Below, in pieces: positions 2,378-53,305 of a DNA stretch of 64,000 nt. The stretch is from an uncultured Mollicutes bacterium (GTDB lineage Bacteria; Bacillota_I; Bacilli_A; RF39; UBA660): assembly GCA_947652375.1 (NCBI GenBank), contig CANTCS010000003.1:4914-68913 (forward strand), given 5' to 3'. A model generated the notes under the pieces. It saw only the letters and a list, made by a program, of their open reading frames with translations. It did no database searches and had not been told where the DNA came from. Position numbers and translations under genes: made by a program. The stretch's first letter is position 1; each line of letters starts with the position of its first letter.

Positions 2378-3920
2378 TGAAAAAGGCGAAGAAGAATCAA
2401 ATAGTGTCGTTAATCAAAAGAAACTTATAGATGATTATTTAGTTGACAAGAATGATATAATCATATATAAAGACTATGTTGATGATGGTTATACTGGAAC
2501 TGATTTTAATAGACCTGCATATAAGAGAATGCTTAATGATATAAAGAAGAAAAAAATAAATGGTATTATAGTAAAGGATTTATCAAGATTAGGAAGAAAT
2601 TATATAGAAGTAGGTAATTTTATTGATGAGATAGTACCAGAATATGGTTTAAGATTTATTTCAGTAAATGATAATGTGGATTCTTTTAAAAATCCTAATG
2701 TGATGGATTCACTAGAAATACCTTTTAAAAATCTTATGAATGAAAGTTATTCTAAAGATTCATCAAAGAAAATGCGTTCATCACTGAAAGCAAGTAAAAA
2801 GTCTGGTAATTTTATTGGTAAAACTGCTCCTTTTGGTTATTTGAAAGATCCAGAAGATGTGCATAAACTAATCATTGATAAAGACGCTGCTAATATTATT
2901 AAAAGAATATTTGATTTAGCCTTAAAAGGTAAGAGTAAACAGGAAATAGTAGAAGAATTAACAAATAATAATATTTTAACACCTAGTGTTTATTTGAAAG
3001 AAAAACATAATATAAAGGTCAGCAGGATTAGTCATAAATGGAATACCAAAATGCTTGATACTATATTACAGAATAAAACATATATTGGTTCTCTTGTTCA
3101 ATGTAAAAGAACTAGAATAAGTCATAAAACACACAATATGGTAAGAGTTGCAGAAGATGAATGGGTTATTTCAAACGAACGACACAATGCAATTATTAAA
3201 GAAGAAGTTTTTAATCAAGTACAAGACATTTTATATAATAGAAATGTTAGAGTTAATAAGAAAGGAAAATTTTATAAATATACTGGATTTTTAAAATGTT
3301 CTGAATGTGGTGGAAATTTATATAGACTTACTAAAATCAAACACAAAAAGGAAAAAGTTTTTTACTATTGCAGTACCTATATTAACACAAAACAATGTAA
3401 TAAACACTATATTCAAGAAAAAGAACTTGATGAGATTGTTTTAAAGACATTAAACCAACACATAGAACTGATATGTGATATAAGTGCAAAAATAGAAGAT
3501 ACAATATCATTTTCAAAAGCAGAATATAATTCTGAATTAAGAAAAATCAGAATAAATGAAATTAACAAAGAATTAGAGAAAAACCACAAATTGCTAGATG
3601 AATTAAAGAAAGATTATAAGTGTGATTTCATTTCAGAAAATGACTATGATGAATTTAAACAAAAATACTTGTATGAGATAAATAAACTAAATTTAGAAAA
3701 AGAAGATTTAAACAAGAGTAAAATAAATTCATACAATTTAGATTGGATAAATCAATTTAAGAAAATTGGAAAAATAGAAGTTGTTGATAGAAATATTGTA
3801 GATAGTTGCATTGAAAATATAATTGTTAATGATGAAAAAGGAGTAGAGATAATTTTTAGATATAATGACCAATATAAATTTGCAGAAAGGTATCTGAAAA
3901 GTCAAAATGATGTGGTATAA
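2334..3920 (+). CDS. large serine recombinase (integrase), copy 2; overlaps copy 1 by 44 nt
   Basis: VYRRRSFDE, DDGYTGTDFNRPAY, IIVKDLSRLGRN, zinc ribbon KCSECGG...YYC, coiled-coil tail. AAGGAAGGAG RBS precedes ATG 2334. It shares near-identical nucleotide tracts with copy 1 (for example about 941-980 versus about 2559-2600). Confidence 0.9.
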   Translation: MKKWTLGVYRRRSFDEKGEEESNSVVNQKKLIDDYLVDKNDIIIYKDYVDDGYTGTDFNRPAYKRMLNDIKKKKINGIIVKDLSRLGRNYIEVGNFIDEIVPEYGLRFISVNDNVDSFKNPNVMDSLEIPFKNLMNESYSKDSSKKMRSSLKASKKSGNFIGKTAPFGYLKDPEDVHKLIIDKDAANIIKRIFDLALKGKSKQEIVEELTNNNILTPSVYLKEKHNIKVSRISHKWNTKMLDTILQNKTYIGSLVQCKRTRISHKTHNMVRVAEDEWVISNERHNAIIKEEVFNQVQDILYNRNVRVNKKGKFYKYTGFLKCSECGGNLYRLTKIKHKKEKVFYYCSTYINTKQCNKHYIQEKELDEIVLKTLNQHIELICDISAKIEDTISFSKAEYNSELRKIRINEINKELEKNHKLLDELKKDYKCDFISENDYDEFKQKYLYEINKLNLEKEDLNKSKINSYNLDWINQFKKIGKIEVVDRNIVDSCIENIIVNDEKGVEIIFRYNDQYKFAERYLKSQNDVV

Positions 3921-31407: not shown

Positions 31408-31842
31408 ATTATCCCTCTTCCCTTTTTTTGTATTTTAACATACTAGGAAATTTATGACAATTATTTTTTAGGCGAATAATTATTAAATTTGAAAATTATA
31501 AATTTTTTTGAAATATATTTGATAAAATAAAAAAATTATTAAATATGGAGTGATGAGAAATAAGTTTAAGTATAGATAGAGATTTTACTACTATTTTAAT
31601 TTTAAAAACAAGAAAATCTAAATGTGTTATTTTTTAAATACTTTTATTCATTATTTAAGAATTTGGAGAGATATTTTCAATTATAATGAATAATGTACAT
31701 TCAAAAGTAATTTTAGATAAATATTATTTTTATTTTATTAAAGTGATATTCTTCTATTTTTATCTTTTTTAGAATATATTTAGTTTAGATGTATTAAATT
31801 AGTTTTTAAAATGTGTTATAATTTAGTTATGGAGTGATATGA

Positions 31843-32919
31843 ATGAGAGTTGTTGTTGTGGCTGGAGGAACTGGTGGACATATTTATCCAGCAATTGCGA
31901 TTATTAATAAAATTAAAGAAAAAGATAATTCTAGTAAATTTTTATATATTGGTACTAAAGATCGAATGGAGAAAGATATTGTACCTAATTTAGGAATAAA
32001 GTTTGTAGGTATTGAGATGCAAGGCTTGAATAGAAAAAATATTTTTTCTAACATTAATGTTTTAAAGAAATTTAGATTAGCTATAAAAAAAGCAAGTCAA
32101 GAGATCGAAAAATTTAAACCAGATATAGTTATAGGAGCTGGAGGATATATAACTGCACCTGTTTTGTATGCTGCACATAAATTAAAAATTCCAGTATTAA
32201 TACACGAACAAAATTCTATTCCTGGCGTTTCTAATAAATTTATTGGGAGATTTGCAGATAGAATATGTGTTTCTTTACCAAATAGTGTAAATTATTTTCC
32301 AAAGGATAAGGTTATATATACAGGAAATCCTCGTAGTGAGGAAATTGTTAAAGTCAGAAAGACTTCAAAAAGTAAGTTGGGATTTGATAAAAATAAAAAA
32401 TTAGTAGTTATTGTAATGGGTTCACTTGGAAGTACTACAATGACTAAGAAAATTAAAGATTTAATTCCAGAATTTAATACTAAAAATTATCAAGTATTAG
32501 TTATTACAGGAAAAGGTTATTATAATCAATATAAAAATTTAGATATTTCTAGTAATATAAAGATAATTCCTTTTATGGATGATTTGATAAATTTACTTAA
32601 AGATTCTGATTTGATTATTTCTCGTGCTGGAGCATCTACTATTGCAGAAATTACCGCTATTGGACTTCCAGCTATATTAGTGCCATCTCCTTATGTTACA
32701 AATAATCATCAATATAAAAATGCAAAAGAATTGATGGATGTAGGAGCTTGTTTAATTGTTAAGGAAGAGGAATTTTCTAAAGAAAAAATTATAAAAGAAA
32801 TCGATAAATTATTTGATGATAAAGAAGCTTATGATATAATGTCTAAGAATAGTAAAAAATTGGGGATCGATGATTCGGCAACTAGAATTTATGAAGAAAT
32901 AAGAAAGTTATCTGGGTGA
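31843..32919 (+). CDS. murG: UDP-GlcNAc:lipid I N-acetylglucosamine transferase
   Basis: GGTGGHIYPAIA, HEQNSIPG, SRAGASTIAE. Confidence 0.9.
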   Translation: MRVVVVAGGTGGHIYPAIAIINKIKEKDNSSKFLYIGTKDRMEKDIVPNLGIKFVGIEMQGLNRKNIFSNINVLKKFRLAIKKASQEIEKFKPDIVIGAGGYITAPVLYAAHKLKIPVLIHEQNSIPGVSNKFIGRFADRICVSLPNSVNYFPKDKVIYTGNPRSEEIVKVRKTSKSKLGFDKNKKLVVIVMGSLGSTTMTKKIKDLIPEFNTKNYQVLVITGKGYYNQYKNLDISSNIKIIPFMDDLINLLKDSDLIISRAGASTIAEITAIGLPAILVPSPYVTNNHQYKNAKELMDVGACLIVKEEEFSKEKIIKEIDKLFDDKEAYDIMSKNSKKLGIDDSATRIYEEIRKLSG

Positions 32920-32923
32920 TAAG

Positions 32924-33832
32924 ATGAATAAATTAGTTGAAATGATAAAAGAAAATAATATTGGTAAAGTAGAAGAAAATGTTTCTTTAAAAAAATATAC
33001 TACTTACCGTGTTGGTGGTATTGCAAGATATGTTGTCTATCCCAAAAATGTTAGTAAGCTTATTTCACTAATTAAATATTTAAAAAATTTTAAAATTAAA
33101 TATAAAATTCTTGGAAAAGGGTCTAATTTATTATTTAGTAATTCATTATATGATGGTGTTTTAATTAAACTTGATTGCTTTGATGACTTAGAATTTTTTT
33201 CAAAGAATAAAGTACGTGTAGGAGCAGGAGTTTCATTAATTAAACTTAGTATTTTAGCAGCGAAAAGAGGACTTGCTGGTCTTGAATTTGCTTCAGGTAT
33301 ACCTGGTAGTATTGGAGGAGCAGTATTTATGAATGCTGGAGCATATAAATCAGATATGGGTTATATTGTTGAATCTGTAAAAGTGTTGACTCCAGAATAT
33401 AAAGTAATTCTTTTGGAAAACAAAGAGATGAATTTTCATTACAGAACTTCTTATTTGCAAACACATCCTGGATATATTTGTCTTGAAGTTATTTTAAAAC
33501 TTCAAAAGGGAAAGAAAGATGCAATAGAAGAGGTAATTTCAGAAAGAAAAAAAAGAAGATTAGAGTCGCAACCTTTAGAATTTCCATCTGCAGGAAGTGT
33601 TTTTAGAAATCCAGAAAATAGTTATGCAGGAGAATTAATTGAAGAACTAGGTCTTAAAGGATTAAAAAAAGGTGGAGCAATGATTAGTGATAAACATGCT
33701 AATTTCATTGTTAATTATAAAAATGCTGAAAGTGAAGATATAAAATATTTAATAGAATTATGTCAAAAAAAAGTATATGAAAAATACCAAATTGAACTAA
33801 AATGTGAGCAAGAATTTGTTAATTGGGAGTAA
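32924..33832 (+). CDS. murB: UDP-N-acetylenolpyruvoylglucosamine reductase
   Basis: FAD-binding domain with YRVGG and GKGSNLL, SGIPGSIGGAVFMNAGAY, SAGSVFRNP. Confidence 0.9.
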   Translation: MNKLVEMIKENNIGKVEENVSLKKYTTYRVGGIARYVVYPKNVSKLISLIKYLKNFKIKYKILGKGSNLLFSNSLYDGVLIKLDCFDDLEFFSKNKVRVGAGVSLIKLSILAAKRGLAGLEFASGIPGSIGGAVFMNAGAYKSDMGYIVESVKVLTPEYKVILLENKEMNFHYRTSYLQTHPGYICLEVILKLQKGKKDAIEEVISERKKRRLESQPLEFPSAGSVFRNPENSYAGELIEELGLKGLKKGGAMISDKHANFIVNYKNAESEDIKYLIELCQKKVYEKYQIELKCEQEFVNWE

Positions 33833-33834
33833 TT

Positions 33835-34524
33835 ATGGCAAAAAAGATAGTAAGAAAGAAGAAACTAAAAATTTTTAATTTTCTAATTAGTCTCTTAATT
33901 TTAATTGGACTATCTTTTTCTGTTTATATATTATTTCAGATGCCTATTAAAAATATCATTATAAAAAATACTAGTTATTTAAATGATGACTATATATTAG
34001 AGATAGGTAAATTAAAAAATTATCCTAAATTTTTATTAGAAAGAAATAAAAAAATTTCAGCAAGAATTTTACAATCTCCTTATGTTGAAAAGGTTTCTAT
34101 AAAAAAGAAATGGGATTTTTTATTAGAAATTACTATTGTTGAAAATAAACCTTTATTTTTAGATTTAAATGAAAATAAATATATTTTTTCTAAAGATAAG
34201 GAGACTAAAGAGGATGAAATAAGTAAAAATTTTAGGGTTCCACGATTAATTAATCATGTTCCTGATAAAAAATATGAGAAGTTTATAAAGGAAATGAAAA
34301 AACTAAAGAAAGATACATTATCTAAGATTTCAGATATAGAATATCAACCTAATGAGTATGATAAAGATAGATTTCTTTTATATATGGATGATGGAAATAT
34401 GGTATATTTAACTTTAACAAAGTTTAAGATGATAAATCATTATAACGAAGTTTTAAGTCAGCTTGAAAATCATAAAGGTATTTTATACTTAGATAATGGA
34501 AATCATTTTCAAATTAAGGAGTAG
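33835..34524 (+). CDS. divIB: cell division protein DivIB/FtsQ
   Basis: Basic N-terminus, one TM, POTRA-like IKNIIIKNTSYLNDDYILE. Sits after murB. ATG 33835 has a GGGAG RBS (track start is TTG 33823). Confidence 0.75.
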   Translation: MAKKIVRKKKLKIFNFLISLLILIGLSFSVYILFQMPIKNIIIKNTSYLNDDYILEIGKLKNYPKFLLERNKKISARILQSPYVEKVSIKKKWDFLLEITIVENKPLFLDLNENKYIFSKDKETKEDEISKNFRVPRLINHVPDKKYEKFIKEMKKLKKDTLSKISDIEYQPNEYDKDRFLLYMDDGNMVYLTLTKFKMINHYNEVLSQLENHKGILYLDNGNHFQIKE

Positions 34525-34527: not shown

Positions 34528-35898
34528 ATGATAAAAGAATTTATAAAGAAAAATATTAAATACTTGTTTTTATTTATATTATTCTTTTTTTGTATACAAT
34601 TCTTTTATGCGGTTTTTTCTCAAGATCAAATTTATAATTATGGTTTTAGTTATGCTATTAGTAGAGGAGAAGTTCCTTATAGAGATTTTAATATGATTAT
34701 TCCACCAATGGGAGCTTTTATTTATGCGATACCTCTATTAATTGGAGGTTCTTATTTAGAGTTTAATTTATTTCAATCATTTCTTTTATGTGTGTTATTC
34801 TTTTATTTATTTAAATTATATGATGAAAAAGCTTGGTTTATATTGTTTGTTTTGATGATTATAGTTCCATTACCTTTAGTTTCTATTTTATTTCAAGGGT
34901 ATAATTTCTTATTGATTTTAGAATTTGTGATTTTATTATATTTAGAGAAAAATAAAAAAAGTGATTATTTGATCGGAATTTTATTAGGTGTAGCTATTTT
35001 GACTAAACAAACTGTAGGAATTCTATTATGTTTATCAACTTTTGTTTATTTAATAAAAGATTATAAGAAATTTATTAAAAGAATTATAGGGTTATTTATA
35101 CCATGTTTAATCTTTTTTATATATTTAATTTTAACTAAATCTTTTACTGCTTTTTTTGATTTATGTTTTTTAGGAATGTTTGATTTTACTAAAAAGAATG
35201 GGGGATTTAGAAAATATTTAAGTGATTTTTCTTTTTACTTATTTATGATTGAAATAATAGGACTTTGTTTCTTAATGATAAAATATCGTAAAGATGAAAA
35301 TACTTTAAGAGAATTGGTTTATATATTTTTATTTTCATCGATTGCTGTTCCATTATTCGATTATCTTCATGTAGTTTATTTTACTTTTGTTTTTTTATTA
35401 TTTTTTGTTGGAAAAATTAAAATTAGTGAAAAATATAAATGGGGAATAAATGTTTATATTTTATCAAGTGTTGTTGGGGTAGTGTGGTTTTTATTCTTTT
35501 ATAATTTTAAAATGCCTAATATAGAAAATTATAATAATTTTAAATGGTTTATTTGTACAGAAAAAAATAGTAAAGAATTTGCAATGATAATTTCTTATAT
35601 GAAAAAGAGACCTAATACAATTTTATTATCAGAAAATACATATCTTATTAAAATAATTTTGGATAGAGAAATAAATTACTTTGATTTACTTAATTATGGT
35701 AATCATGGTTATAATGGGTCTAATAAATTAATTAGTATGCTTAATAAAGAGAAAGACAAATATCTTTTAGTTAATATGGAAGCTTATAAAAGAAAAAATT
35801 TAAGACAACAGTTTAATAAAGAAGTTATTGAATATGTGTTGAAGAATTATCAAAAAGTAGATAAACTAGGAGTTTATGATATTTATTATAAGGAGTGA
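34528..35898 (+). CDS. polytopic membrane protein, paralogue 1 of 3 (possible GT-C-like transferase; function unknown)
   Basis: 456 aa. Multiple TM segments followed by a polar C-terminal domain. Shared blocks: YGFSYAISRGEVPYRDFN, LLYLEK....DYLIG..LGVAILTKQTVG, FFDLCFLGMFDF, VPLFDYLH, INYFDLLNYGNHGYNG. Confidence 0.75.
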   Translation: MIKEFIKKNIKYLFLFILFFFCIQFFYAVFSQDQIYNYGFSYAISRGEVPYRDFNMIIPPMGAFIYAIPLLIGGSYLEFNLFQSFLLCVLFFYLFKLYDEKAWFILFVLMIIVPLPLVSILFQGYNFLLILEFVILLYLEKNKKSDYLIGILLGVAILTKQTVGILLCLSTFVYLIKDYKKFIKRIIGLFIPCLIFFIYLILTKSFTAFFDLCFLGMFDFTKKNGGFRKYLSDFSFYLFMIEIIGLCFLMIKYRKDENTLRELVYIFLFSSIAVPLFDYLHVVYFTFVFLLFFVGKIKISEKYKWGINVYILSSVVGVVWFLFFYNFKMPNIENYNNFKWFICTEKNSKEFAMIISYMKKRPNTILLSENTYLIKIILDREINYFDLLNYGNHGYNGSNKLISMLNKEKDKYLLVNMEAYKRKNLRQQFNKEVIEYVLKNYQKVDKLGVYDIYYKE

Positions 35899-37253
35899 TT
35901 TATTTGAAAAAAGTTGTTAGAAATTTATTAATATTTTTGGGGATATTTTTGGTTTCTTTTTTATTCATTCATGTTTTAGGGTTTGTTAATGGTTATGGAG
36001 ATCCTATTAATAGTTATGGTTTTGCAAAAGCTATAAAAATGGGAGAAATTCCTTATCTAGATTTTAATACTATTTCGACTCCTTTGTATGCTTTTTATCA
36101 AGCTCTATTTTTATTTATATTTGATGACTTTATTATGATAAATGTTTCTCAAGCTATTCTTATAACTTTTAGTGTAATAATACTTTATAAATTATTTGGT
36201 AAAAAAAGTTTCCTTTTATTAATTGTAGTAGCTTTTTTCCATTATAAAAATATTGTTGCTACTTATAATTATTTGAGTTTATTTATGATAATTCTTTTAA
36301 TATATTTAGAAAAAGAATATGCCGATAAAGATTATTTAATAGGATTTGTAATTGGTCTTTCTATTTTAGCGAAACAAACAGTAGGATGTTTCATGATAAT
36401 TCCTTCATTGTTATTTTATTTTAAAAATAGAGAAAAAATTTTAAAAAGATTTAGAGGATTTTTAATTCCTTGTTTTGTGTTTTTCTTTTATTTAATTTTT
36501 AATAAAACTGTATTTCAATTTTTTGACTTATGTCTATTTGGTTTGTTTGATTTTTTGACTAAAAATGGTGTTGGTGGAGGTCATATAAATTTAGGGTGGC
36601 TTATTTTTACAATAATAACTTTTCTTTTAGCTTTATTTTTACTTATAAAAAATAAAAAAGATATTAATAATTATTATTTAATATCAGGAGTATTATTTGC
36701 TATTCCATTATTTGATATAACGCATTTTTCTTTTTGGTTTACTTGTTTTTTAATAATGCTTTTACCATATATAAAAAAATATAGTAAAGTATTAATTACT
36801 GTTGGAATAGCTATGTCAATAACTTTAATGTTTTTAGATTTTTCTTTTTCTACTTTAAAATTAGATCTATGTATTACTAAAGATTTAAAGCATTTTAAGT
36901 ATAATTTGTATCGGAAAGATTTTTATGATGCAAATATTATTGTTGATAAATTTGTTAATACTTATGATGACCCTGTTGTTATAGGTTACTTTTCTATGAG
37001 ACATTCGATTGTAAATGACAAAAAAATTTCATATTTTGATGTTTTATATGATGGTAATTATGGATTTAATGGAATTGATAAGATGAAAAAGAAAATTGAT
37101 AAAATGCATAATCAAATATTTATTGTTTCTAAAATAGATTATAATTCTAAAGATGAGTTTTCGCAATTTTCTAAGAGTTTAGCCAAATATGTAATGGATA
37201 ATAATACTAAAATAGATTCGAAATATGGTTTTGATGTTTATTACAAAAAATAA
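35895..37253 (+). CDS. polytopic membrane protein, paralogue 2 of 3
   Basis: 452 aa. GTG start overlaps the stop of paralogue 1. Blocks: YGFAKAIKMGEIPYLDFN, LIYLEKEYADKDYLIG...LSILAKQTVG, FFDLCLFGLFDF, IPLFDITH, ISYFDVLYDGNYGFNG. Confidence 0.75.
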   Translation: MIYLKKVVRNLLIFLGIFLVSFLFIHVLGFVNGYGDPINSYGFAKAIKMGEIPYLDFNTISTPLYAFYQALFLFIFDDFIMINVSQAILITFSVIILYKLFGKKSFLLLIVVAFFHYKNIVATYNYLSLFMIILLIYLEKEYADKDYLIGFVIGLSILAKQTVGCFMIIPSLLFYFKNREKILKRFRGFLIPCFVFFFYLIFNKTVFQFFDLCLFGLFDFLTKNGVGGGHINLGWLIFTIITFLLALFLLIKNKKDINNYYLISGVLFAIPLFDITHFSFWFTCFLIMLLPYIKKYSKVLITVGIAMSITLMFLDFSFSTLKLDLCITKDLKHFKYNLYRKDFYDANIIVDKFVNTYDDPVVIGYFSMRHSIVNDKKISYFDVLYDGNYGFNGIDKMKKKIDKMHNQIFIVSKIDYNSKDEFSQFSKSLAKYVMDNNTKIDSKYGFDVYYKK

Positions 37254-37308
37254 TAGTTGTTAAAATAGAATTTTTCTATTACTAATTTTCTTTTTAAGAG
37301 GTGGTATC

Positions 37309-38682
37309 ATGCAATTTTTTAAAAGATTTTTTGAAATTATTTATAAATATAGAAATTTACTTTTCATTTTTATTTTTGCATTTTTTGCTATGAGTTTCTT
37401 TTTTAGTTCTATTGATGGAGATGTATTATGGAATTATGGTTTTAGTTATGCAATAAGTAAAGGAGAAATACCTTATTTAGATTTTAATATGATTATTACA
37501 CCATTTTATCCGATGTTCAATGCGATATTTCTTAAAATATTTTCAAATAATATATTAGTATTTTATATAATTAATAGTTTTTTAATTACGTTGATGTTTA
37601 ATCTGTTATTTAAAATGTTTAACTATAAAACATGGATATTATTTCTATTTTTATTTTTTCCTTTACCTGCGGTAGTATTTCCTACTTATAATATGTTATT
37701 AATATTTTTGGTTCTATTACTTATTTATTTAGAAAAAAATGATGGAAATGATTATCTTATTGGAATTATTTTGGGTATTTCTATTTTAACAAAACAAACT
37801 GTAGGCTGTTTTTTGTGTTTACCAAGTTTATTTTATTTTTATAAAAATTGTAAGAAAATTGGTAAAAGAATAACAGGTTGTTGTATTATTTGTAGTATGT
37901 TCTTTTTATATTTATTATTTTGTGGGAATTTAGAAGAGTTTTTCTCTTTATGTTTCTTAGGAATGCTTGATTTTCATAAAGCCAATACTAGAGTTTTTAA
38001 TATATTTTTCTTTTTAACTCTTTTAATGGATTTTATTATTATATATAAAATAGTAAAAGATAAGAGAAATATTAATAATTGGTATGTATTATGTTTTTCT
38101 ATAATCAATGTTCCTTTATTTGATGTTAATCATTTTGAATATTTTTTATTTTTATTTTTGGCATTATTTTTAGAAAAACTTACTATTTATAAAAAACAAT
38201 TATGTTATTGTAGTTTACTTTTTTCTTTATGTTATATATTTATATTTTTTTATAATACTGTTGGATTTAGTATAAGTTATCCTAATCATTATAATAATTT
38301 TGAAGTAAGGCTTTTATATAATAAAAATGGGGAATTTGCTATTAGGGATAGATTAAATAAATATATAAATAAGAATAAAAATAATAATATTGTATTGCTT
38401 AGTAGTGAGGCTTATTTTTATAAGATTACTAATGAAATGGATATTAATTATTTTGATTTATTAAATAAAGGTAATCATGGTTATAATGGAACTAAAAGAA
38501 TGATTAATAAAATTAGAGAGATGCCTAAAGGGACAAAATTTATTTTAGATTATGGTGAATTTAAAAAGAAAGATAGATATCAAAGACAACAAATTAATAA
38601 AGAAATTATGAAATATGTAATTGATAATGGTAAATTAATTGATGAGTTTGACTGTTTTAGAGTTTATAAATTAGCTAATTAA
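37309..38682 (+). CDS. polytopic membrane protein, paralogue 3 of 3
   Basis: 457 aa. Blocks: YGFSYAISKGEIPYLDFN, LIYLEKNDGNDYLIG...ISILTKQTVG, FFSLCFLGMLDF, VPLFDVNH, INYFDLLNKGNHGYNG. Confidence 0.75.
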   Translation: MQFFKRFFEIIYKYRNLLFIFIFAFFAMSFFFSSIDGDVLWNYGFSYAISKGEIPYLDFNMIITPFYPMFNAIFLKIFSNNILVFYIINSFLITLMFNLLFKMFNYKTWILFLFLFFPLPAVVFPTYNMLLIFLVLLLIYLEKNDGNDYLIGIILGISILTKQTVGCFLCLPSLFYFYKNCKKIGKRITGCCIICSMFFLYLLFCGNLEEFFSLCFLGMLDFHKANTRVFNIFFFLTLLMDFIIIYKIVKDKRNINNWYVLCFSIINVPLFDVNHFEYFLFLFLALFLEKLTIYKKQLCYCSLLFSLCYIFIFFYNTVGFSISYPNHYNNFEVRLLYNKNGEFAIRDRLNKYINKNKNNNIVLLSSEAYFYKITNEMDINYFDLLNKGNHGYNGTKRMINKIREMPKGTKFILDYGEFKKKDRYQRQQINKEIMKYVIDNGKLIDEFDCFRVYKLAN

Positions 38683-38760
38683 ATATATTGTTTTTTTAAA
38701 ATTATTTTACAAAAGATTAATTTACTAGTATAATTTAATTTAAAGATAGGAGTTGCATAT

Positions 38761-39999
38761 ATGAATAATATTTATACTGGAATAGATCTAGGTACTGATA
38801 GTATAAAGATTGTTGTTTGTGAAAAAGTTAAAAGTAAATTTTATGTTTTAGCTTCTGTTAGCAGTCCTTCTATGGGAATAAAAAATGGGTTTATAATCGA
38901 TACTAAGTTAGCTATTAGTAGTGTTAAAAATGCTTTGCGTCAAATTAATGAGATGTTAGGTATTAAGATTACAAAAGCGATTGCTTGTATTCCATCTTTA
39001 AATTGTCAAATGAATATTGTAGTTGGCTCTACTAGTATTATTGATTATAATGATATTACTGGAGTTGATGTAAGTAATGTTTTACTTGATGCGATTAAAG
39101 GGCAAGATTTTACTAATGAAGAGTTAGTAACTGCTATGCCGATTAGTTTTACTATAGATGATAATAATTGTGTTAATGATCCTAAGGGGATGAAAGGAAG
39201 TATTTTAGAGGCTAGAGTGGTTATTAGTACAACAGCTAAGGAGCCTTTATATAGAATATTAGAGGTTTTAAAATTAAGTGGAATTGAAACGGTAGATATT
39301 GCTTATAATTCAGTTGGTGATTATTTTTCTATTAGAAATAAAAAGTATGATGAATTAGTAGGAGCAATTATTAATATTGGAGAAGAAAGTACAAATATTA
39401 GTATTTTTAATAAAGGGATTCAAATCAAAAATAAGTTATTACCAATAGGAAGTAATAATGTTGATAAAGATATTTCTTATGCTTTTAAAACTAAGCCTAA
39501 AGAATCTCGTAAAATGAAGGAAGAATTTGCGGTTTGTATGGCTAGTTATGCAGATACTAATGATTTATATGAAATAAAGACAAAAAATGGTGAAAAAAAA
39601 GAAATTAATCAAGTTAATTTATCTAAAGTTGTTGAGGCAAGAATGAGAGAAATATTAAAACTTGCGAAAAATGAGATAAAAAACTTAACAAAAAGAGAAA
39701 TACGTTATATAATTATAACAGGTGGCTTAAGCGAAATGGCTGGATTTCAATATTTAGTGGAACAAGAGTTAGGTTTTGTTGCTAAAGTATGTAATCTATC
39801 GACTATAGGAATAAGACACAATAAATATAGTAGTTGCTTTGGAATTGCTAAATATTTTGATAGTAAATTAAAGCTTAGAGGAAAGCAGTATAATATGATT
39901 AATAGTGATGATATTAATACTCTTTTATCTGTAGATTCTACAATTACTAGTAATGAAAATATGTTAAGTAGAGTGTTTGGACACTTCTTTGATAATTAA
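38761..39999 (+). CDS. ftsA: cell division protein FtsA
   Basis: Actin-like ATPase (GIDLGTDSIKIVV, IITGGLSEMAGF), directly upstream of ftsZ. Confidence 0.9.
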   Translation: MNNIYTGIDLGTDSIKIVVCEKVKSKFYVLASVSSPSMGIKNGFIIDTKLAISSVKNALRQINEMLGIKITKAIACIPSLNCQMNIVVGSTSIIDYNDITGVDVSNVLLDAIKGQDFTNEELVTAMPISFTIDDNNCVNDPKGMKGSILEARVVISTTAKEPLYRILEVLKLSGIETVDIAYNSVGDYFSIRNKKYDELVGAIINIGEESTNISIFNKGIQIKNKLLPIGSNNVDKDISYAFKTKPKESRKMKEEFAVCMASYADTNDLYEIKTKNGEKKEINQVNLSKVVEARMREILKLAKNEIKNLTKREIRYIIITGGLSEMAGFQYLVEQELGFVAKVCNLSTIGIRHNKYSSCFGIAKYFDSKLKLRGKQYNMINSDDINTLLSVDSTITSNENMLSRVFGHFFDN

Positions 40000-40011
40000 G
40001 GAGGAAAAGGT

Positions 40012-41139
40012 ATGATAGGTGGATTAGAAATGGATCAATTAGCAAAAATCAAGGTCATCGGTTTAGGTGGTGGCGGAGGTAATGCTATTAATAGAATGGT
40101 TGAGTCTGGAGTTAAAGGGGTAGAATTTATTGCTGCTAATACTGACTTACAAGTTTTAAATTCATCAAAAGCTGATGTTAAGATTCAAATAGGAGCTAAT
40201 TTAACAGATGGACTTGGAGCAGGTGGAAAGCCTGAAGTTGGTAAAGAGTCTGCGGTTGAATCTAAGAAAGAGATTGAAGAAGCTTTAAGTGGAGCTGATA
40301 TGGTGTTTATTACTGCTGGAATGGGTGGTGGAACTGGAACTGGAGCTGCAGCAGTTGTTGCAGAAATAGCTCAAGCACTAGGAGCACTTACAGTTGCAAT
40401 TGTTACAAAGCCATTTTCTTTTGAGGGAAAGAGAAGAATGGAAAATGCAAATGTTGGTCTTGAAGATTTAAGAAAACATGTGGATACATTAATTGTTATT
40501 CCAAATGATAGATTGAGAGAAATAATTGATAAATCGACTCCAATGCTTGAAGCATTTAAAGAAGTAGATAATGTTCTACGTCGAGGAGTTCAATCTATAT
40601 CGGATTTAATAGCTGTTGTTGGTCTTGTTAACTTAGATTTTGCGGATGTAAAAGCAGTTATGGAGAAAAGTGGTCGTGCAATTATTGGTATTGGTATTGG
40701 TATGGGTGAGGAACGTGCATTGGAGGCTGCAAAGCAAGCTGTGTCTTCGCCACTTCTTGAAACTTCAATTGAGGGAGCAACTGATGCAATAATTAATATT
40801 ACAGGTGGTGTTAATTTAACTTTATTTGAAGCTGAGCAAGCTGCAGAGGTGGTTAGAAGTGCTGCTAATACAGATATTAATACAATTTTCGGTTCAGTTA
40901 TTAATGAAAATCTAAATGATGAAGTTATTGTTACAGTAATTGCAACTGGATTTGATAAAGCAAAGAAAGCTATTCCAGAGCCAATTCATAATACGCCTTC
41001 TCCAACGACAAGAAGAATTCCAATTAGAGAAGATTTTACTTATCAACCAGAAATTTTAGTTGACGATGATAGTGATATTGATGGTACAAGTAATGTGGAT
41101 ATCGAAATGCCTTCATTTTTAAGAGATAGAAATTTTTAA
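40012..41139 (+). CDS. ftsZ: cell division protein FtsZ
   Basis: [32 protein letters not shown]-terminal DIEMPSFLR peptide. Confidence 0.97.
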
Positions 41140-43750: not shown

Positions 43751-44209
43751 ATGTTTAAAAAAATATTAAAATTTAGCATGATACTTTTATGTATGGGAAC
43801 AATATTTATGTTTTCTTCCGAAAATTCTTCTCAATCCAGTAAAAAGAGTAGTTTGATAGTATCAAAAATAAGTGATAATTTTTTAAGTGATAAATTGAAT
43901 GATAAAAAAAGAAAGGCTTATATAAGCATAATTACTTTCATGGTTAGAAAAAGTGCTCATTTCTTAATATATTTTCTTTTGGGGGTCCTTTTAATTAATT
44001 TTATTAAAGAATTTACAATGATTAATTATAAAAGTGTATTATTAGCTATCTTTTTAGCATTTTTATATGCTTGTAGTGATGAATTTCATCAGTTATTTAT
44101 TGATGGACGTAGTTGTGAATTTAGCGATGTTTTAATTGATACCTTTGGAGCAGTGGTTGGTTGTCTTATATATTCTAAAATAGATAAACTTAGGAGGAAA
44201 AATATATGA
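43751..44209 (+). CDS. VanZ-like membrane protein
   Basis: Four TM segments. CSDEFHQLFIDGRSCEFSDVLIDTFGAVVG. Confidence 0.65.
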   Translation: MFKKILKFSMILLCMGTIFMFSSENSSQSSKKSSLIVSKISDNFLSDKLNDKKRKAYISIITFMVRKSAHFLIYFLLGVLLINFIKEFTMINYKSVLLAIFLAFLYACSDEFHQLFIDGRSCEFSDVLIDTFGAVVGCLIYSKIDKLRRKNI

Positions 44210-45615
44210 ATAAGAAAAAACAGTTAGCTAAGAATACTATAATAATTTTTTTTGGTAAAGTTTGTACGCAATTAATATCTTTCTTTTTATTACCTTTATA
44301 TACAGCCTATTTAAATACTTATGAGTATGGGGTTGTTGATTTAATTCAAACATATGTAACTTTATTGGTTCCAATTATTACTTTAGAACTAGAAATGAGT
44401 ATTTTTAGATATTTAGTAGATGTCCGTAATAATAAAAAAGCGGCAAATACTCTTATTAGTAATAATTTTTTTGTATTATTTTTAAGTTTAACAATTTTTT
44501 CTATAATTTACGGAATTGTTGGTTGTTTTGTAGAAATTCCTTTTAAATTATTAATTTGGATTGATGTTATAGTTTGTGTTTTATCAGGGAATTTTTTACA
44601 AGTTGCTAGAGGATTTGGAAAGACTTTAGATTATTCGGTTAGTTGCATTTTAACAGGAATTACAACGGTTGTTTCTAATATTTTTCTAATTTGTTTTATA
44701 AGAATGGGTGCTTCAGGAATGATTATTTCAATGGCTTTGGCTAACGGAATTTGTTCTTTATATTTATTTTTGAAGCTTAAGCTTTATAAATTTATTAGCT
44801 TTAAAATAATTGATTTTAAATTATTAAAAGATATGTTTAAATATTCTGTTCCACTAATACCTAATGGAGTTAGTTGGTGGATAGTTAATGTCAGTGATAG
44901 AAGTATAATTTCTTGGGTTCTTGGAGCTTCTTATAATGGGCTTTATGCTATCAGTAATAAATTTCCAACAATTATTTCTAGTTTGACAGGTATTTTTAAT
45001 TTGAGTTGGGCGGAGTCAGCTGCACTTCATATAGAAGCAGAAGATCGTGATGAATTTTTTTCAGAAATTACTAATACAGTTATTAAGCTTTTTACAGCTC
45101 TTGGAGTAGGAATGCTTGCTTGTATGCCGTTTGTTTTTCCTTTACTTATCGATAATAAATATAGAGAAGCTTATAATTATATTCCATTTTTAGTACTAGG
45201 AACAGTATTTAATGTAGCTATTTGCTTGTATAGTCAGGTTTACTTAGCTAAAAAATTATCTAAGCAAGTAGCAACTACTGCAATAATAGGTGCTGTTATT
45301 AATATTCTTATTAATGTAATATTTATAAAAAAAATTGGTTTATATGCAGCTAGTTTATCGACAGCAATTGCTTATTTTGTTATGATGGTATATCGTCATA
45401 TTGATTTAAAAAAATATATTAATATTAAAATAGAAAAAGGTTTAATAATTAAAACTATACTTATTTTTGGATTTGAATTAATAATTTACTTCCAAAAAAA
45501 CATTTTTTGTTATATAATAGGGCTAATTGTTGTATGTACTTATGCAATTTTATTAAACAAAAGTTTTATCAAAGCCTTATTTTTACCAATTTTAAATAAA
45601 ATTAAAAGAGCTTAA
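44206..45615 (+). CDS. MOP/Wzx-type polysaccharide (oligosaccharide) flippase family protein
   Basis: 469 aa with about 12-14 TM segments. N-terminal LAKNTIIIFFGKVCTQLISFFLLPLYTAYL. ATGA overlap with the vanZ-like gene. Confidence 0.6.
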   Translation: MNKKKQLAKNTIIIFFGKVCTQLISFFLLPLYTAYLNTYEYGVVDLIQTYVTLLVPIITLELEMSIFRYLVDVRNNKKAANTLISNNFFVLFLSLTIFSIIYGIVGCFVEIPFKLLIWIDVIVCVLSGNFLQVARGFGKTLDYSVSCILTGITTVVSNIFLICFIRMGASGMIISMALANGICSLYLFLKLKLYKFISFKIIDFKLLKDMFKYSVPLIPNGVSWWIVNVSDRSIISWVLGASYNGLYAISNKFPTIISSLTGIFNLSWAESAALHIEAEDRDEFFSEITNTVIKLFTALGVGMLACMPFVFPLLIDNKYREAYNYIPFLVLGTVFNVAICLYSQVYLAKKLSKQVATTAIIGAVINILINVIFIKKIGLYAASLSTAIAYFVMMVYRHIDLKKYINIKIEKGLIIKTILIFGFELIIYFQKNIFCYIIGLIVVCTYAILLNKSFIKALFLPILNKIKRA

Positions 45616-49465: not shown

Positions 49466-49903
49466 ATGTTTATTGGAGAATATCATCATACAATAGACAA
49501 TAAGGGAAGGATTATTATTCCTGCTAAATTTCGTGAAGAATTAGGGGATAATTTTATTATTACTAGGGGAATAGAGTCTTGCCTTTTTGTTTATCCGCTT
49601 GAGAATTTTAATAGAATTACTGATAAATTAGCTTCATTGCCTTTCACTAAAAAAGATGCGAGAAATTTTAGTCGTTTCTTTATGTCAGGTGCTACGAATG
49701 TAGAATTAGATAAACAGGGTCGTGTCAATGTGGCTATTCCATTAATTGATTATGCACATATAGAAAAAGATTGTGTTATAATTGGAACTGGTGATAGACT
49801 TGAGATTTGGTCACAAGAAAATTGGGAAAGTTTCTTTAATTCTAGTATTGAAAATATGTCAGACATAGCTGAAAATTTATTTAATGAAAGTGTGGATTTA
49901 TAA
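49466..49903 (+). CDS. mraZ: transcriptional regulator MraZ
   Basis: Two MraZ/SpoVT-AbrB repeats (DNKGRIIIPAKFR and DKQGRVNVAIP). Confidence 0.9.
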   Translation: MFIGEYHHTIDNKGRIIIPAKFREELGDNFIITRGIESCLFVYPLENFNRITDKLASLPFTKKDARNFSRFFMSGATNVELDKQGRVNVAIPLIDYAHIEKDCVIIGTGDRLEIWSQENWESFFNSSIENMSDIAENLFNESVDL

Positions 49904-50832
49904 TGGAAAAACATATAAGTGTATTACTAAAAGAGTCTATTTCCTCCCTAAATTTAGACGATAATAGTATTATTGTTGATGCAACACTTGGCTATGGAGG
50001 ACACAGTAGTAACATCTTAGATAGAATAAATAAGGGGTATTTGTTCGCCTTTGACCAAGATAGTGAAGCTATTCGGCATAGTACCAGTCGCTTAAGTGAG
50101 ATTGGTACTAACTTCACTATCATAAAAAGTAATTTTGTACATATGAAAAAGGAACTTGAAAAACTGGGTGTTAAAGAAGTAGATGGAATTTTATTTGATT
50201 TAGGAGTATCTTCACCACAACTTGATGATGTAGAACGAGGTTTCTCATTTCATAAAGATGCAAAACTTGATATGAGAATGGATAGGGAACAAAAATTATC
50301 TGCTTATGAAGTTGTTAATGAATATAAGAAAGAAGATTTAGCTTTTATTTTTAAAAAATATGGAGAAGATAAATTTGCTAATAATATAGCTAAAAAAATT
50401 GTTGATTATAGAAATAGTAAACCGATAGAGACTACTTTAGAATTAGTAGAAATTATTAAAACTGCTGTTCCACTTAAGTTTCGCAAAGATAAACATCCAG
50501 CTCGACAAATTTTTCAAGCTATTAGAATAGAAGTAAATCACGAATTAGATGTAATAGAACCAGCGCTTGAGCAAGCTTTAGAGTTAATTAAAATAGGTGG
50601 AAGAGTTGCGGTTATAACATTTCATTCGTTAGAAGATAGAATAGTTAAAAACTATTTTAAAAAAAAGTGTATGATTGATGATAAAGTTAAAGGGATGCCT
50701 AATATACCATTAGAATATTTACCGGATTATAAATTGGTTGTTAATAAAGCAATTATACCAAGTGATGAGGAAGTTGAATATAATCCTCGAGCTAGAAGTT
50801 CAAAGCTTAGAGTGATAGAAAAAGTTAAATAG
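49903..50832 (+). CDS. rsmH: 16S rRNA (cytosine1402-N4)-methyltransferase
   Basis: HISVLLKE, DATLGYGGHS, FDLGVSSPQLD, ITFHSLEDR. Confidence 0.9.
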   Translation: MEKHISVLLKESISSLNLDDNSIIVDATLGYGGHSSNILDRINKGYLFAFDQDSEAIRHSTSRLSEIGTNFTIIKSNFVHMKKELEKLGVKEVDGILFDLGVSSPQLDDVERGFSFHKDAKLDMRMDREQKLSAYEVVNEYKKEDLAFIFKKYGEDKFANNIAKKIVDYRNSKPIETTLELVEIIKTAVPLKFRKDKHPARQIFQAIRIEVNHELDVIEPALEQALELIKIGGRVAVITFHSLEDRIVKNYFKKKCMIDDKVKGMPNIPLEYLPDYKLVVNKAIIPSDEEVEYNPRARSSKLRVIEKVK

Positions 50833-50845
50833 GAGATGATTTTAG

Positions 50846-51145
50846 ATGAGAAAGGTAAAAAAAAGATTGAAGATGTCAAAGTTTGAAAAATTATTATATT
50901 CTTTAGCTCTTTTCTTATTAGTAGTATCACCAGTATTAACAGTTTTTTCGAAAGCTACTTTAGCAGAAATTAATTTTGAGGTTGAAAAACAAAAAAAAGA
51001 GATTGATAAGCAGAAGAAAACTAATGAATCGCTTGCGATGACAATAGATGAACTTGCATCTTTAACAAAAATACAAGAAGTTGCAGAACAACAAGGTTTA
51101 AGTTATAATAATAGTAATATAAAAACTATTGTAGAAGATAACTAA
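50846..51145 (+). CDS. ftsL: cell division protein FtsL
   Basis: Small bitopic protein (TM followed by a coiled coil) between rsmH and the PBP gene. Confidence 0.7.
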   Translation: MRKVKKRLKMSKFEKLLYSLALFLLVVSPVLTVFSKATLAEINFEVEKQKKEIDKQKKTNESLAMTIDELASLTKIQEVAEQQGLSYNNSNIKTIVEDN

Positions 51146-51157
51146 GGATGTGATATT

Positions 51158-53305
51158 TTGAAAAGTAAAAGACGAGGAAATAATATTAAATATCCAAGAG
51201 TAATTATATTAGTTTCTCTTCTTTTATTTTGTTTAATGATTTTTAGAGTAATAGATTTAGGATTATCTAAAAAAATTGATGGAATAAATATAAAAAACTT
51301 AGCAAGTCAAAGAACGACTAGAACTGATGTTGTTTCAGCGAAAAGAGGTTCAATATATTCAAGTAATGGTGAAGTACTTGCACAAAATGTTTCATCTTAT
51401 AAGTTAATTGCATATCTTGATCCTAAAAGAACTACTGATAAAAAAAAACCACAACATGTTGTAAATAAAGATGAAACAGCAGAAAAACTTGCTCCTATAC
51501 TGGGGATGGAAAAAGAAGAGGTTTTAAAATATTTAAATAAAGAAAATATTTATCAGACAGAATTTGGTAGTAAGGGTAAGGGACTTAATGAGCTTACAAA
51601 AAAGAAAATAGAGAATTTAAATTTATCAGGACTTGATTTTATAGAAAGTTTTAAAAGATATTATCCAAAGGGAGATTTCTCATCTTATACCGTTGGTTAT
51701 GCTAAAAATGAAAATGATGAAAGCTCTACTATTAAAGGGGAGATGGGAATTGAGAAACAATATGATACAATTTTAAAAGGAGAAAATGGTTATACTTCGT
51801 ATCAAAAAGATTTAAAAGGATATAAAATTTCTAATACTCCTGTGATGAAAAAAGATGCTATTCAAGGAAAAGATATTTATCTTACTATTGATTCTAATAT
51901 TCAGTTTTTTATAGAACAAGCTCTTAATAATGCAGATAAAGATTTTGATTGGGAATTTTTTCATATAACAATTCTGGATGCTAAGAGTGGGGCTGTTTTA
52001 GGAACAGCAACTTCGCCATCTTTTGATCCGAATAAAAGAGATATTTCTAATTATTTAGATATGTTAGTAGCTTCTCCTTATGAACCTGGCTCTACTATGA
52101 AAACTTTTACATATATGGCAGCTATGGAAAATGGAGTTTATAATGGAAATGAAACTTATAAATCAGGTGTTTATGTTACAAATGATGGTACAGAAATAGG
52201 TGATTGGAATCGTGGTGGTTGGGGAATTATCTCCTATGATAAAGGTTATGCTATGAGTAGTAATGTTGGAGTTATTAATATTATTAATAAACATATGTCG
52301 AGTGTGATGCTTAGACAATATTTTAAAAAATTGGGATTTGGTAAAAAGACTGGCATTGAACTTCCAAATGAATCTCGGGGAAATTTAGAGTTTAAATATG
52401 AGACGGAAGTTTATAATGCGGGATTTGGACAAGGTATTACAACTACGCCAATTCAAAATGTGAAAGCTATGACACCTCTGACAAATGATGGAATGTTATT
52501 AGAACCATTTATTGTTTCTAAAATTGTAAATTCGGAAACGGGAGAAGTTGATTTAGAAAATAAAAGAGAAGAAATTGAAAGAGTGGCATCAACTAATACG
52601 GTAAATAAAATGATTCAATTAATGGATGATTGTGTAAATGGAGATGGAAATACAGGAAGTGGGTATAAAATTAATGGAGAAGAATTGATAGGAAAAACTG
52701 GAACAGCTCAAATTGCTAATACAAAAGGAGGAGGTTACTTAGATGGGAAAGAAGATATTATTTCTTCCTTTTCAGGAATATATCCAAAGAGTGATCCTCA
52801 AATTATAATTTATGCTTCTGTAAAAAGGCCTACAGCTGGTAGTCAAAAACCTATTAGTAATGCTATTAAAGAGATAGTTACAAATATTTCTAAATATTAT
52901 GGAAATAGTGATAGTGCAGAGTCTTCTATAGAAATAAAAGATTATAAATTACCAAGTTTAGTAAATAAGAAAATAGATGCAGTAAAATTATTCTTAGATA
53001 GTAGACAAATAAAATATATTATTATTGGAAATGGCGAAAAAGTTATAAAACAATCACCTAATAAAAATAATGTTATTACAACAAATGATATAGTCTTTTT
53101 AATAACTAATGATGCAAATATTACAGTTCCTGATGTGGTGGGATTATCTTCAAAAGTGGCTAATGATTTATTAAAAAAATTAGGTTTAAAAGTTAAGTTA
53201 GAGGGAGTTGGATATGTTACAGAACAATCAGTTTCTCAGTCAACTCCAATAACAGAGGGAATGGAAATAATTCTTAAATTAGCTCCTAAATATAATGTTG
53301 AGTAG
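51158..53305 (+). CDS. class B penicillin-binding protein (FtsI/PBP2B/SpoVD type) with two PASTA domains
   Basis: TTG start, N-terminal TM, transpeptidase motifs STMK, SSN and KTGT, two C-terminal PASTA-like repeats. Confidence 0.9.
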   Translation: MKSKRRGNNIKYPRVIILVSLLLFCLMIFRVIDLGLSKKIDGINIKNLASQRTTRTDVVSAKRGSIYSSNGEVLAQNVSSYKLIAYLDPKRTTDKKKPQHVVNKDETAEKLAPILGMEKEEVLKYLNKENIYQTEFGSKGKGLNELTKKKIENLNLSGLDFIESFKRYYPKGDFSSYTVGYAKNENDESSTIKGEMGIEKQYDTILKGENGYTSYQKDLKGYKISNTPVMKKDAIQGKDIYLTIDSNIQFFIEQALNNADKDFDWEFFHITILDAKSGAVLGTATSPSFDPNKRDISNYLDMLVASPYEPGSTMKTFTYMAAMENGVYNGNETYKSGVYVTNDGTEIGDWNRGGWGIISYDKGYAMSSNVGVINIINKHMSSVMLRQYFKKLGFGKKTGIELPNESRGNLEFKYETEVYNAGFGQGITTTPIQNVKAMTPLTNDGMLLEPFIVSKIVNSETGEVDLENKREEIERVASTNTVNKMIQLMDDCVNGDGNTGSGYKINGEELIGKTGTAQIANTKGGGYLDGKEDIISSFSGIYPKSDPQIIIYASVKRPTAGSQKPISNAIKEIVTNISKYYGNSDSAESSIEIKDYKLPSLVNKKIDAVKLFLDSRQIKYIIIGNGEKVIKQSPNKNNVITTNDIVFLITNDANITVPDVVGLSSKVANDLLKKLGLKVKLEGVGYVTEQSVSQSTPITEGMEIILKLAPKYNVE

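Follow-up and report, generated by a model that had tools for sequence, protein, structure and literature searches.

ArnT is an undecaprenyl-phosphate-L-Ara4N:lipid A transferase (family GT83; PDB 5F15/5EZM) and PimE is a polyprenyl-phosphate-mannose:PIM4 alpha-1,2-mannosyltransferase (family GT87; PDB 9DM5/9DM7). In Firmicutes, GT-C enzymes (YfhO, PgtC2, PgfM1) occur in three-component systems, together with a GT2 protein (GtrB, CsbB or PgfS) and a GtrA-type flippase; the PgfS/ArnC-type class of GT2 proteins makes polyprenyl-phosphate sugars. RF39 is a widespread gut order with reduced genomes and no cultured members, whose envelope is known only from gene inventories. Here we describe three tandem genes, designated X1, X2 and X3 (copies 1, 2 and 3), located between divIB and ftsA in a 64,000-nt stretch of a genome of this order (contig CANTCS010000003.1); this whole stretch is called the window, and all positions are given on it. 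On balance it is probable that the three genes encode envelope glycosyltransferases that depend on polyprenyl-phosphate sugars and are expressed together with genes for the wall and for division.

ArnT and PglB have been classed as GT-C_A enzymes (PMC12041525). PimE has 12 transmembrane (TM) helices, both termini in the cytoplasm and no soluble domain; its D58 serves as the base, and K195 and H322 act on the phosphate (PMC12041525). Three-component systems target teichoic acids, wall or division proteins (PMC12041528). Members of RF39 are predicted to have peptidoglycan and to lack standard synthesis of wall teichoic acid and lipoteichoic acid (PMC10868615), and most RF39 genomes carry uppS (10.1101/2020.01.21.914887). 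In Bacillus subtilis, ylxW-ylxX-sbp lie between divIB and ftsA (PMC6827917), and in many Bacillota ylxW/ylxX come after ftsQ (PMC12157513). The slot commonly holds envelope-related accessory genes, which contradicts the view, expressed in an initial annotation of the window, that divIB and ftsA are normally contiguous in Firmicutes. No YlxW/YlxX-like open reading frame (ORF) was found between divIB and ftsA in the window. The features of the region are as follows (L001 is one of the two related loci closest to the window, and the subfamilies are described below):

31843-32919, + strand: murG, first gene of the co-oriented block; its L001 orthologue has Glyco_transf_28 and Glyco_tran_28_C domains, and the gene lies upstream of the array in most loci
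32924-33832, + strand: murB; L001 orthologue with FAD_binding_4 and MurB_C domains, synteny
33823-34524, + strand: divIB/ftsQ; POTRA_1 (E 5.7e-10) and FtsQ_DivIB_C (E 7.4e-5)
34528-35898, + strand: X1 (456 aa), predicted GT-C-fold paralogue of subfamily D, from a clade usually first after divIB; GT87 (E 2.7e-5) and PMT_2 (E 0.011)
35895-37253, + strand: X2 (452 aa), predicted GT-C-fold paralogue of subfamily C, GTG start; PMT_2 (E 0.0022)
37309-38682, + strand: X3 (457 aa), predicted GT-C-fold paralogue of subfamily D, from a clade beside ftsA in the closest relatives; AlphaFold and Foldseek
37414-37494, + strand: X3 residues 36-62, predicted first extracytoplasmic loop (EL1) with D38 and PYxD58FN, candidate catalytic acid; conservation and topology
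37792-37794, + strand: codon of X3 K162 in the KQTVG motif, candidate polyprenyl phosphate binder; Lys in 203 of 203 copies, role by analogy with PimE K195
38260-38679, + strand: X3 residues 318-457, predicted extracytoplasmic alpha/beta C-terminal domain with invariant GN[HY]G; conservation, domain model and topology
38706-38734, + strand: sigma-70-like promoter sequence TTTACA-17-TATAAT between X3 and ftsA; 11 of 12 positions, a consensus match only
38761-41139, + strand: ftsA (38761-39999) and ftsZ (40012-41139); L001 orthologues with SHS2_FTSA/FtsA and Tubulin/FtsZ_C domains, synteny

X1, X2 and X3 align end to end, X2 and X3 showing 32% and 42% identity to X1. Pairwise BLASTP comparisons among the three gave E-values of 1e-53 to 4e-83 (174-253 bits), and 100 shuffles of X3 compared with X1 as a control reached at most 22.7 bits. 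The initial annotation had already recognized these three ORFs as full-length paralogues, with the coordinates and lengths listed above, and the motif blocks that it quoted are present; only the count for the first block needs correction, since 19 (not 20) of its 25 positions are identical between X1 and X3. Each protein consists of a hydrophobic body and a polar C-terminal domain (C-domain), as was proposed, with sizes of ~317 and ~140 aa rather than 330 and 110 aa.

In comparisons with curated families, the only Pfam matches of X1 and X2 were sub-threshold matches, all of them to GT-C families, and X3 matched nothing in Pfam. The gathering thresholds are 25 bits for GT87 (PF09594) and 26.1 bits for PMT_2 (PF13231). 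X1 reached 24.5 bits with GT87, which neither X2 nor X3 matched; PMT_2 was matched by X1 (16.4 bits) and X2 (18.7 bits) and not by X3. Among 45 diverse relatives, 23 matched GT87 and 17 matched PMT_2 at E <= 0.01 (best E 3.6e-8 and 8.9e-9, respectively). YfhO (PF09586) was not matched by X1-X3 at E <= 1, nor by any of the 45 relatives. NCBIfam models gave no match for any of the three proteins, and profiles built from 3 and from 45 sequences found nothing among PDB chain sequences at E <= 10. Assignment of the X proteins to GT87, PMT_2, YfhO or any other named family is therefore not supported; the initial annotation had likewise been unable to assign one.

The family is nevertheless a large one. 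A search of 5.8 billion proteins yielded 284 relatives, all of ~445 aa and unnamed, many of them with a precomputed GT87 match; when a profile was run exhaustively against clusters formed at 50% identity, 2,131 of them matched with E <= 1e-3 and 663 with E <= 1e-30, almost all over the full length. Source records gave no names for eight NCBI relatives, and the literature searched contained no published description of the family. With at least 663 clusters at 50% identity, this unnamed group, placed between Pfam GT87 and PMT_2, would merit its own family model. Neither a set of 50,697 phage records nor IMG/VR contained a relative, and a phage origin or a serotype-converting module was rejected on this ground.

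A structural model of X3, computed with AlphaFold on the 45-sequence alignment, has high predicted confidence (pLDDT 92.6, pTM 0.91). In a Foldseek comparison of this model with the PDB, ranks 1-12 were all GT-C proteins (ArnT, ALG9, PglB, DPY19, ALG12, PIG-U, PimE). The top match was ArnT 5F15 (E 3e-3, probability 1.0, TM-score 0.56), and the ArnT and PglB matches together had a probability of 1.0 and TM-scores of 0.45-0.56; PIG-U was found at rank 10, and PimE structures at ranks 11-12 (TM-scores 0.24-0.30). Non-GT-C matches had probabilities of at most 0.5, and past rank 12 they were G protein-coupled receptors and transporters at probabilities of at most 0.1. In the model, two helices (39-50 and 66-77) lie in EL1, after TM1 and before the following TM helix, and helix 181-205 leads into an outside loop that itself bears a helix. 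This layout agrees with the GT-C_A module of PimE, with its juxtamembrane helices JM1 and JM2 and its feature after TM7 (PMC12041525). The model thus supports a GT-C_A fold for the X family, at the level of fold only. The GT-C guess made in the initial annotation agrees with this model and with the sub-threshold GT87 and PMT_2 matches; YfhO, one of the types then named, had no match at all.

The C-domain, modelled alone, reached a pLDDT of 91.3, and its comparison with PDB structures revealed no significant relative (best E 0.086, with partial Rossmann-like matches). The C-domain of AglB was considered as a relative and set aside as not significant (TM-score 0.40, probability 0.33).

Conservation and averaged hydropathy and charge were determined from 203 full-length copies and are given here in X3 numbering. 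TM1 (residues 17-33) follows a Lys/Arg-rich N-terminus, and the next 30 residues, which hold D38 and PYxD58FN, are almost free of Lys and Arg. The summed Lys/Arg frequency is ~4.2 both in the N-terminus and in loop 176-187, and two further rich loops have values of 2.8 (248-258) and 2.2 (290-300), as against 1.1 in EL1 and 0 in loop 268-276. Lys/Arg-poor loops carrying (i) C215, D221, F222 and N226 and (ii) P269, D272 and H275 alternate with the Lys/Arg-rich ones, and the last TM helix (301-316) runs into the C-domain, giving an odd number of passes. This alternation places EL1 and the C-domain outside: in every self-consistent topology model the N-terminus is predicted to be cytoplasmic and both EL1 and the C-domain to face outward. 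The initial annotation had suggested an extracytoplasmic C-domain and had named a cytoplasmic position of the conserved Asp as evidence against its reading; the Lys/Arg pattern predicts an external Asp. For residues 63-176 two models are consistent with the positive-inside rule; in an 11-pass model Y127/N128 and K162 lie outside and E142/D148 inside, and in the other the sides are reversed. We favour the 11-pass model, which would match the 7-TM GT-C_A module. H275 is outside in all models, and R187 lies in a cytoplasmic Lys/Arg loop.

Eight residues (Y127, G152, K162, F222, P269, G388, N389 and G391) are conserved in 100% of the copies, and R187 and H275 in 99.5%. Position 38 is acidic in all 203. 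Position 58 is acidic in 97.5%, with Asp in 189 copies (93%), Glu in 9 (4.4%), Asn in 4 and His in 1. D38 is therefore a stricter candidate than D58 for the catalytic acid. By analogy with PimE, it is likely that the acid of EL1 would act as the base and that K162 and H275 would be phosphate ligands.

The arrangement found in the window recurs across the lineage. When one genome of each GTDB species was scanned, 73 loci were obtained, to which one was added by contig look-up (74 species-level loci in total); they come from metagenome-assembled genomes of uncultured gut 'Bacilli', 'Tenericutes', 'Mycoplasma sp. CAG:877' and Ca. Faecimonas, with the exception of a few that are evidently mis-binned. 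Ca. Faecimonas (GTDB genus CAG-877) has been placed in the order RF39 (PMC8035907). The order murG-murB-divIB-X(n)-ftsA-ftsZ is present in 59 of the 74 loci, a proportion that applies to loci gathered by presence of the family and is not a fraction of RF39 genomes. Nine further loci are cut by contig ends and are consistent with divIB-X-ftsA, and six copies lie elsewhere. The 59 complete arrays comprise one copy (4 loci), two copies (18), three (23), four (5) or five (9). The three copies of the window, described as a triplication in the initial annotation, are real, and the number is not a fixed property: one to five copies from about five subfamilies occur across the lineage. The initial annotation had stated that its reading would be refuted if such a triplet were routinely annotated in the division and cell wall (dcw) clusters of the lineage. 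Half of this applies: the array is routine in RF39-type gut Bacilli and not peculiar to the source genome, although it is not annotated. Since the arrangement is standard across RF39, its role is probably an envelope decoration linked to wall synthesis.

Stray copies outside the dcw region (6 loci) have mixed neighbours, including a conjugative/pilus-type locus, RmuC, ABC-F, an aldehyde dehydrogenase and a Big_2 protein. One stray copy, of subfamily D (L075:1-21347, identical to L057), is located near a surface Ig-like protein, a sortase, a T2SSE-type ATPase and TraC-like and TraG-like proteins, a setting that resembles a conjugative or pilus-type element. Another (L068) directly follows the gene of an 872-aa Big_2 protein.

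Gene spacing suggests how the array is expressed. The median gap from the divIB stop to the first X gene is 3 nt (n=62, interquartile range 3-5) and that between successive X genes also 3 nt (n=130, with 38% overlapping), whereas the last X gene is separated from ftsA by a median of 68 nt (n=65), with at least 60 nt in 65 of 65 cases and a strict sigma-70-like match in 23 loci. Because of this tight divIB-X spacing and of the gap with a promoter-like site before ftsA, the array is assigned to the murG-murB-divIB unit, and ftsAZ probably has additional transcription of its own. With regard to the co-transcription with division genes proposed earlier, the coupling is to murG-murB-divIB, and ftsA has its own gap and promoter-like site.

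In the window, X1 starts 3 nt past the divIB stop, as first reported, with the Shine-Dalgarno sequence AAGGAG inside the last divIB codons. The reported overlap of X2 with X1 depends on the start codon, which is ambiguous (region 35889-35906). It amounts to 4 nt if GTG 35895 is used, which directly abuts an AAGGAG; TTG 35904 has the canonical 9-nt Shine-Dalgarno spacing, shortens X2 by 3 residues, removes the overlap and may be the true start. Whichever start holds, X1 and X2 are tightly packed. X3 is preceded by a 55-nt gap and has its own AGAGGTGG. The TTTACA-17-TATAAT site is the best promoter-like match of the region, in which no terminator-like hairpin separating divIB, the array and ftsA was found. 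An extended -10-like element, TGTGTTATAAT, is located ~25 nt upstream of the murG start (31800-31842), in a divergent intergenic region of 435 bp; it is plausibly the promoter of a murG-murB-divIB-X operon and was not among the top matches of the regional promoter scan.

Average-linkage clustering at ~38% identity divided the copies into five main subfamilies: A (72 copies), B (42), C (28), D (22) and E (22). The array types that occur repeatedly are A, BA, AC, BAC, BEA, DCA and DGBAC. The window has the array D-C-D, and its closest relatives by FtsZ, FtsA, MurB and MurG identity (76-92%) have B-F-D (L001) and B-D-C (L002). The nearest homologs of X1 are the first-position copies of L023, L029 and L030 (57-60%) and those of X2 the second-position copies of L029, L023 and L030 (60-63%), all three loci being more distant from the window than L001 and L002; those of X3 are copy 3 of L001 and copy 2 of L002, with only 59-61% identity. 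Comparison of the flanks (76-92%) with the X copies (57-63%) indicates that the array turns over faster than its surroundings. The G+C content of the array is 20-21%, compared with 23-37% in the flanks; this was rejected as a sign of horizontal transfer, since the array is common to the whole lineage and hydrophobic AT-rich codons account for the composition.

Identity between subfamilies is 40-48% in EL1, TM2-7 and the JM3 loop, and 26-27% in TM8-11 and the C-domain, a pattern that suggests a conserved donor/catalytic module joined to a variable acceptor module. Since the subfamilies keep the first module and diverge in TM8-11 and the C-domain, the copies most likely differ in the sugar or the linkage that they add. 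The existence of single-copy genomes shows that one enzyme can suffice, so that decoration or diversification is a more likely role than a pathway of several obligatory steps.

The related loci also contain other candidate envelope genes. In L001 and L002 a 321-aa GT2 protein, with two C-terminal TM helices, is encoded directly after ftsZ; over its full length it aligns with PgfS (E 1e-75) and with ArnC (E 1e-40), and as a presumed maker of polyprenyl-phosphate sugars it is indirect evidence for a donor of this kind. A GT2 of this type stands beside ftsZ in these two loci only, and no GtrA was seen. Its gene overlaps that of U614, a 614-aa polytopic protein with a soluble C-domain, for which hmmsearch and hhalign detected no relatedness to X. 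Because of this overlap, U614, and not X, may be the direct partner of the GT2. In L001-L003 the array includes genes for a PssA-like CDP-alcohol phosphatidyltransferase and a sulfatase-fold protein of LtaS architecture. The PssA-like/LtaS-architecture and GT2/U614 regions (L001:11439-13859 and L001:16433-19239, likewise in L002) have no counterpart in the window. Nine loci (L030:15331-16743, L013, L020, L032, L035, L036, L041, L050, L069) carry between the last X gene and ftsA a ~470-aa ORF, whose product, the Z protein, resembles X in layout (a Lys-rich N-terminus, ~9-10 TM helices and a soluble C-domain with YYDYGGYL...FIDGRADLY). The Z protein has no Pfam match and no similarity to X by hmmsearch and hhalign; it may be another GT-C-like enzyme. 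The divIB-ftsA slot thus appears to be a site that collects outward-acting, lipid-donor-dependent envelope enzymes.

The observations outlined above suggest the following mechanism. X1-X3 would be GT-C_A membrane enzymes of ~11 passes each, with the N-terminus inside. Their active site would be formed by (i) EL1 with D38 and PYxD58FN, (ii) the outward loops with Y127/N128, D221/N226 and P269/D272/H275 and (iii) the outside C-domain with GN[HY]G. By analogy with ArnT, PimE and PglB, each enzyme would use a polyprenyl-phosphate donor located in the outer leaflet and pass its sugar to an acceptor on the outer side, the EL1 acid serving as base and the invariant K162 and H275 holding the leaving phosphate. 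Tight translational coupling with murG-murB-divIB would ensure that the enzymes are made alongside the wall and division machinery. The subfamilies would share the donor/catalytic module, and their members most likely act on a common envelope acceptor. Given the envelope enzymes gathered in the slot and the predicted lack of standard teichoic acid pathways in RF39, this acceptor is most likely a wall-associated or lipid-anchored glycopolymer.

Several points weigh against this interpretation. None of X1-X3 reaches a curated family threshold in Pfam or NCBIfam, and the PDB sequence profile search was empty at E <= 10. The Foldseek E-values are modest (3e-3), and the query was a predicted structure. 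Residues 63-176 are ambiguous, so that K162, Y127 and E142/D148 change sides between models, and D58 may not be the catalytic base, because it is replaced by Asn or His in 5 of the 203 copies. The 64-kb window contains no GtrB-type GT2, GtrA flippase or LtaS-like gene, the assignment of the acceptor is circumstantial, and the lineage survey was built on loci already containing the family.

Protein O-glycosylation is a serious rival, although we consider it rather unlikely: the X proteins would attach polyprenyl-phosphate sugars to extracytoplasmic parts of surface, wall-synthesis or division proteins. PMT enzymes are a precedent, 17 of the 45 relatives match PMT_2, and two of the six stray copies adjoin Ig-like surface proteins, one of them with a sortase; the remaining stray-copy contexts (RmuC, ABC-F, aldehyde dehydrogenase) are, however, unrelated. 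The GT2 beside ftsZ in L001 and L002 is most like PgfS of the Streptococcus mutans protein-glycosylation operon, but this match falls under the equivalog cutoff, and ArnC is matched equally over its full length. Streptococcal GT-C systems (GtrB/PgtC2 and PgfS/PgfM1) modify division and wall proteins, namely PBP1a, PrsA, LytR, PknB and FtsQ (PMC12041528), but their enzymes are of the YfhO family, which X does not match. Moreover, DivIB, FtsL and penicillin-binding protein (PBP) 2B of the window have no Ser/Thr-rich disordered tails, and the sole tract with at least 50% Ser/Thr is a short stretch of the VanZ-like protein.

Direct action on peptidoglycan or lipid II, in which the enzymes would attach a sugar substituent at the septum, either to the glycan strand or to the stem peptide, would explain the position of the array and its strict coupling to murG-murB-divIB across the lineage, and the predicted active site faces outward, where nascent peptidoglycan emerges. 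Yet no characterized GT-C enzyme among the structural matches has a peptidoglycan acceptor, and a range of one to five copies with turnover of subfamilies is unexpected for a core step, so that we judge this improbable. A SEDS/FtsW-type polymerase was rejected, since FTSW_RODA_SPOVE was matched neither by X1-X3 nor by the 45 relatives, and no RodA or FtsW chain appeared among the 50 Foldseek matches listed. Finally, the fold might have been retained without transferase activity, in a divisome-linked scaffold, a lipid-binding subunit or a transporter. PIG-U, which ranked tenth in the structural comparison, is a non-catalytic GT-C-like subunit of the GPI transamidase, and the failure of the X proteins to reach any curated enzyme family threshold fits this view. 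It is nonetheless very improbable, because the polar residues at the expected GT-C active-site positions are near-invariant in the 203 copies and ~5 subfamilies, a donor synthase gene adjoins in the closest relatives, and Foldseek returned no transporter fold with a meaningful probability.

The interpretation that we prefer, in which the X proteins are envelope glycosyltransferases, can be extended, more tentatively, to the array as a whole. It may form the core of an undescribed pathway for an envelope glycopolymer or lipoglycan, assembled from lipid-linked donors wholly on the outer side of the membrane, expressed jointly with the genes for wall and division and replacing the teichoic acid pathways missing from RF39; cassette-like gain, loss and exchange of ~5 subfamilies, along with the LtaS-like, PssA-like and other polytopic enzymes of the slot, would then give species- or strain-specific gut surface glycans. 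This extended version is doubtful in its entirety. The array is in any case conserved in an uncultured gut order, where it varies in composition and lacks an annotation, and it is a concrete candidate for RF39 surface glycan synthesis and for its variation between species.

Some other features of the window were also recorded. Downstream of murE (43751-45615), one gene encodes the VanZ-like protein (E 2e-24) and another a flippase of the MOP family (Polysacc_synt, E 3e-16) that is weakly similar to MurJ; in the 21 related loci that extend far enough, the VanZ gene is present in 18 and the flippase gene in 12. A second dcw fragment (49466-53305), comprising, by eye from the translations, mraZ, rsmH, ftsL and a gene for a 715-aa class B PBP, lies ~8 kb downstream of ftsZ and not upstream of murG, the cluster being split and reordered; no ftsW, mraY or murD was visible among the window translations, likewise judged by eye. 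Two tandem overlapping genes (662-2377 and 2334-3920) encode large serine recombinases, the first with Resolvase, Recombinase and Zn_ribbon_recom domains and the second similar by eye, and this pair may mark the edge of an integrated element. The ORF at 57759-62063 (1,434 aa) has no Pfam match at E <= 0.001, and eight other mid-sized ORFs of the window are likewise without a family.

Compared with the systems introduced at the outset, the array shares its slot with ylxW-ylxX-sbp, which are co-transcribed with murB-divIB and have a proposed accessory role in envelope or division (PMC6827917, PMC12157513). The products of those genes are small DUF881-type proteins unrelated to the 450-aa GT-C X proteins, and in this lineage envelope genes of another class have moved into the position where other Bacillota carry ylxW/ylxX/sbp. 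The three-component systems resemble the proposed arrangement in that a GT2 makes the C55-P-sugar and a GT-C enzyme transfers it outside, and in the PgfS/ArnC-type GT2 beside ftsZ in the closest relatives. They differ in that X has no YfhO match, the window encodes neither GtrA nor GtrB, and it is U614 that overlaps the GT2 in L001 and L002.

With PimE, the X proteins share GT87 as their closest Pfam family, an EL1 with two juxtamembrane helices and an Asp that is, coincidentally, at position 58 in both; the multi-copy array also recalls mycobacteria, in which several GT-C paralogues build one lipoglycan. The invariant Lys and His candidates of X parallel K195 and H322 of PimE (PMC12041525), these equivalences being drawn by inference and not by superposition. 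In contrast to PimE, the X proteins have an odd number of passes and a 140-aa C-domain predicted to lie outside, and they match it weakly in structure. The best match at that level is ArnT (probability 1.0, TM-scores 0.54-0.56, over 544-546 aligned columns); like X, it joins a polytopic GT-C_A body to a soluble C-domain outside the cytoplasm and has an acidic residue in the first outside loop, and the PMT_2 similarity, although weak, is a further likeness. Identity to ArnT is, however, ~9-10%, PMT_2 scores are 16-19 bits against a threshold of 26.1, X is ~100 aa shorter and its C-domain is without a confident structural relative; moreover, the host of X is of Gram-positive type, with no lipid A, and X forms a multi-copy array in the dcw region. 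By analogy, the X proteins would work like ArnT, PimE or Gtr-type GT-C enzymes, and are members of none of these groups.

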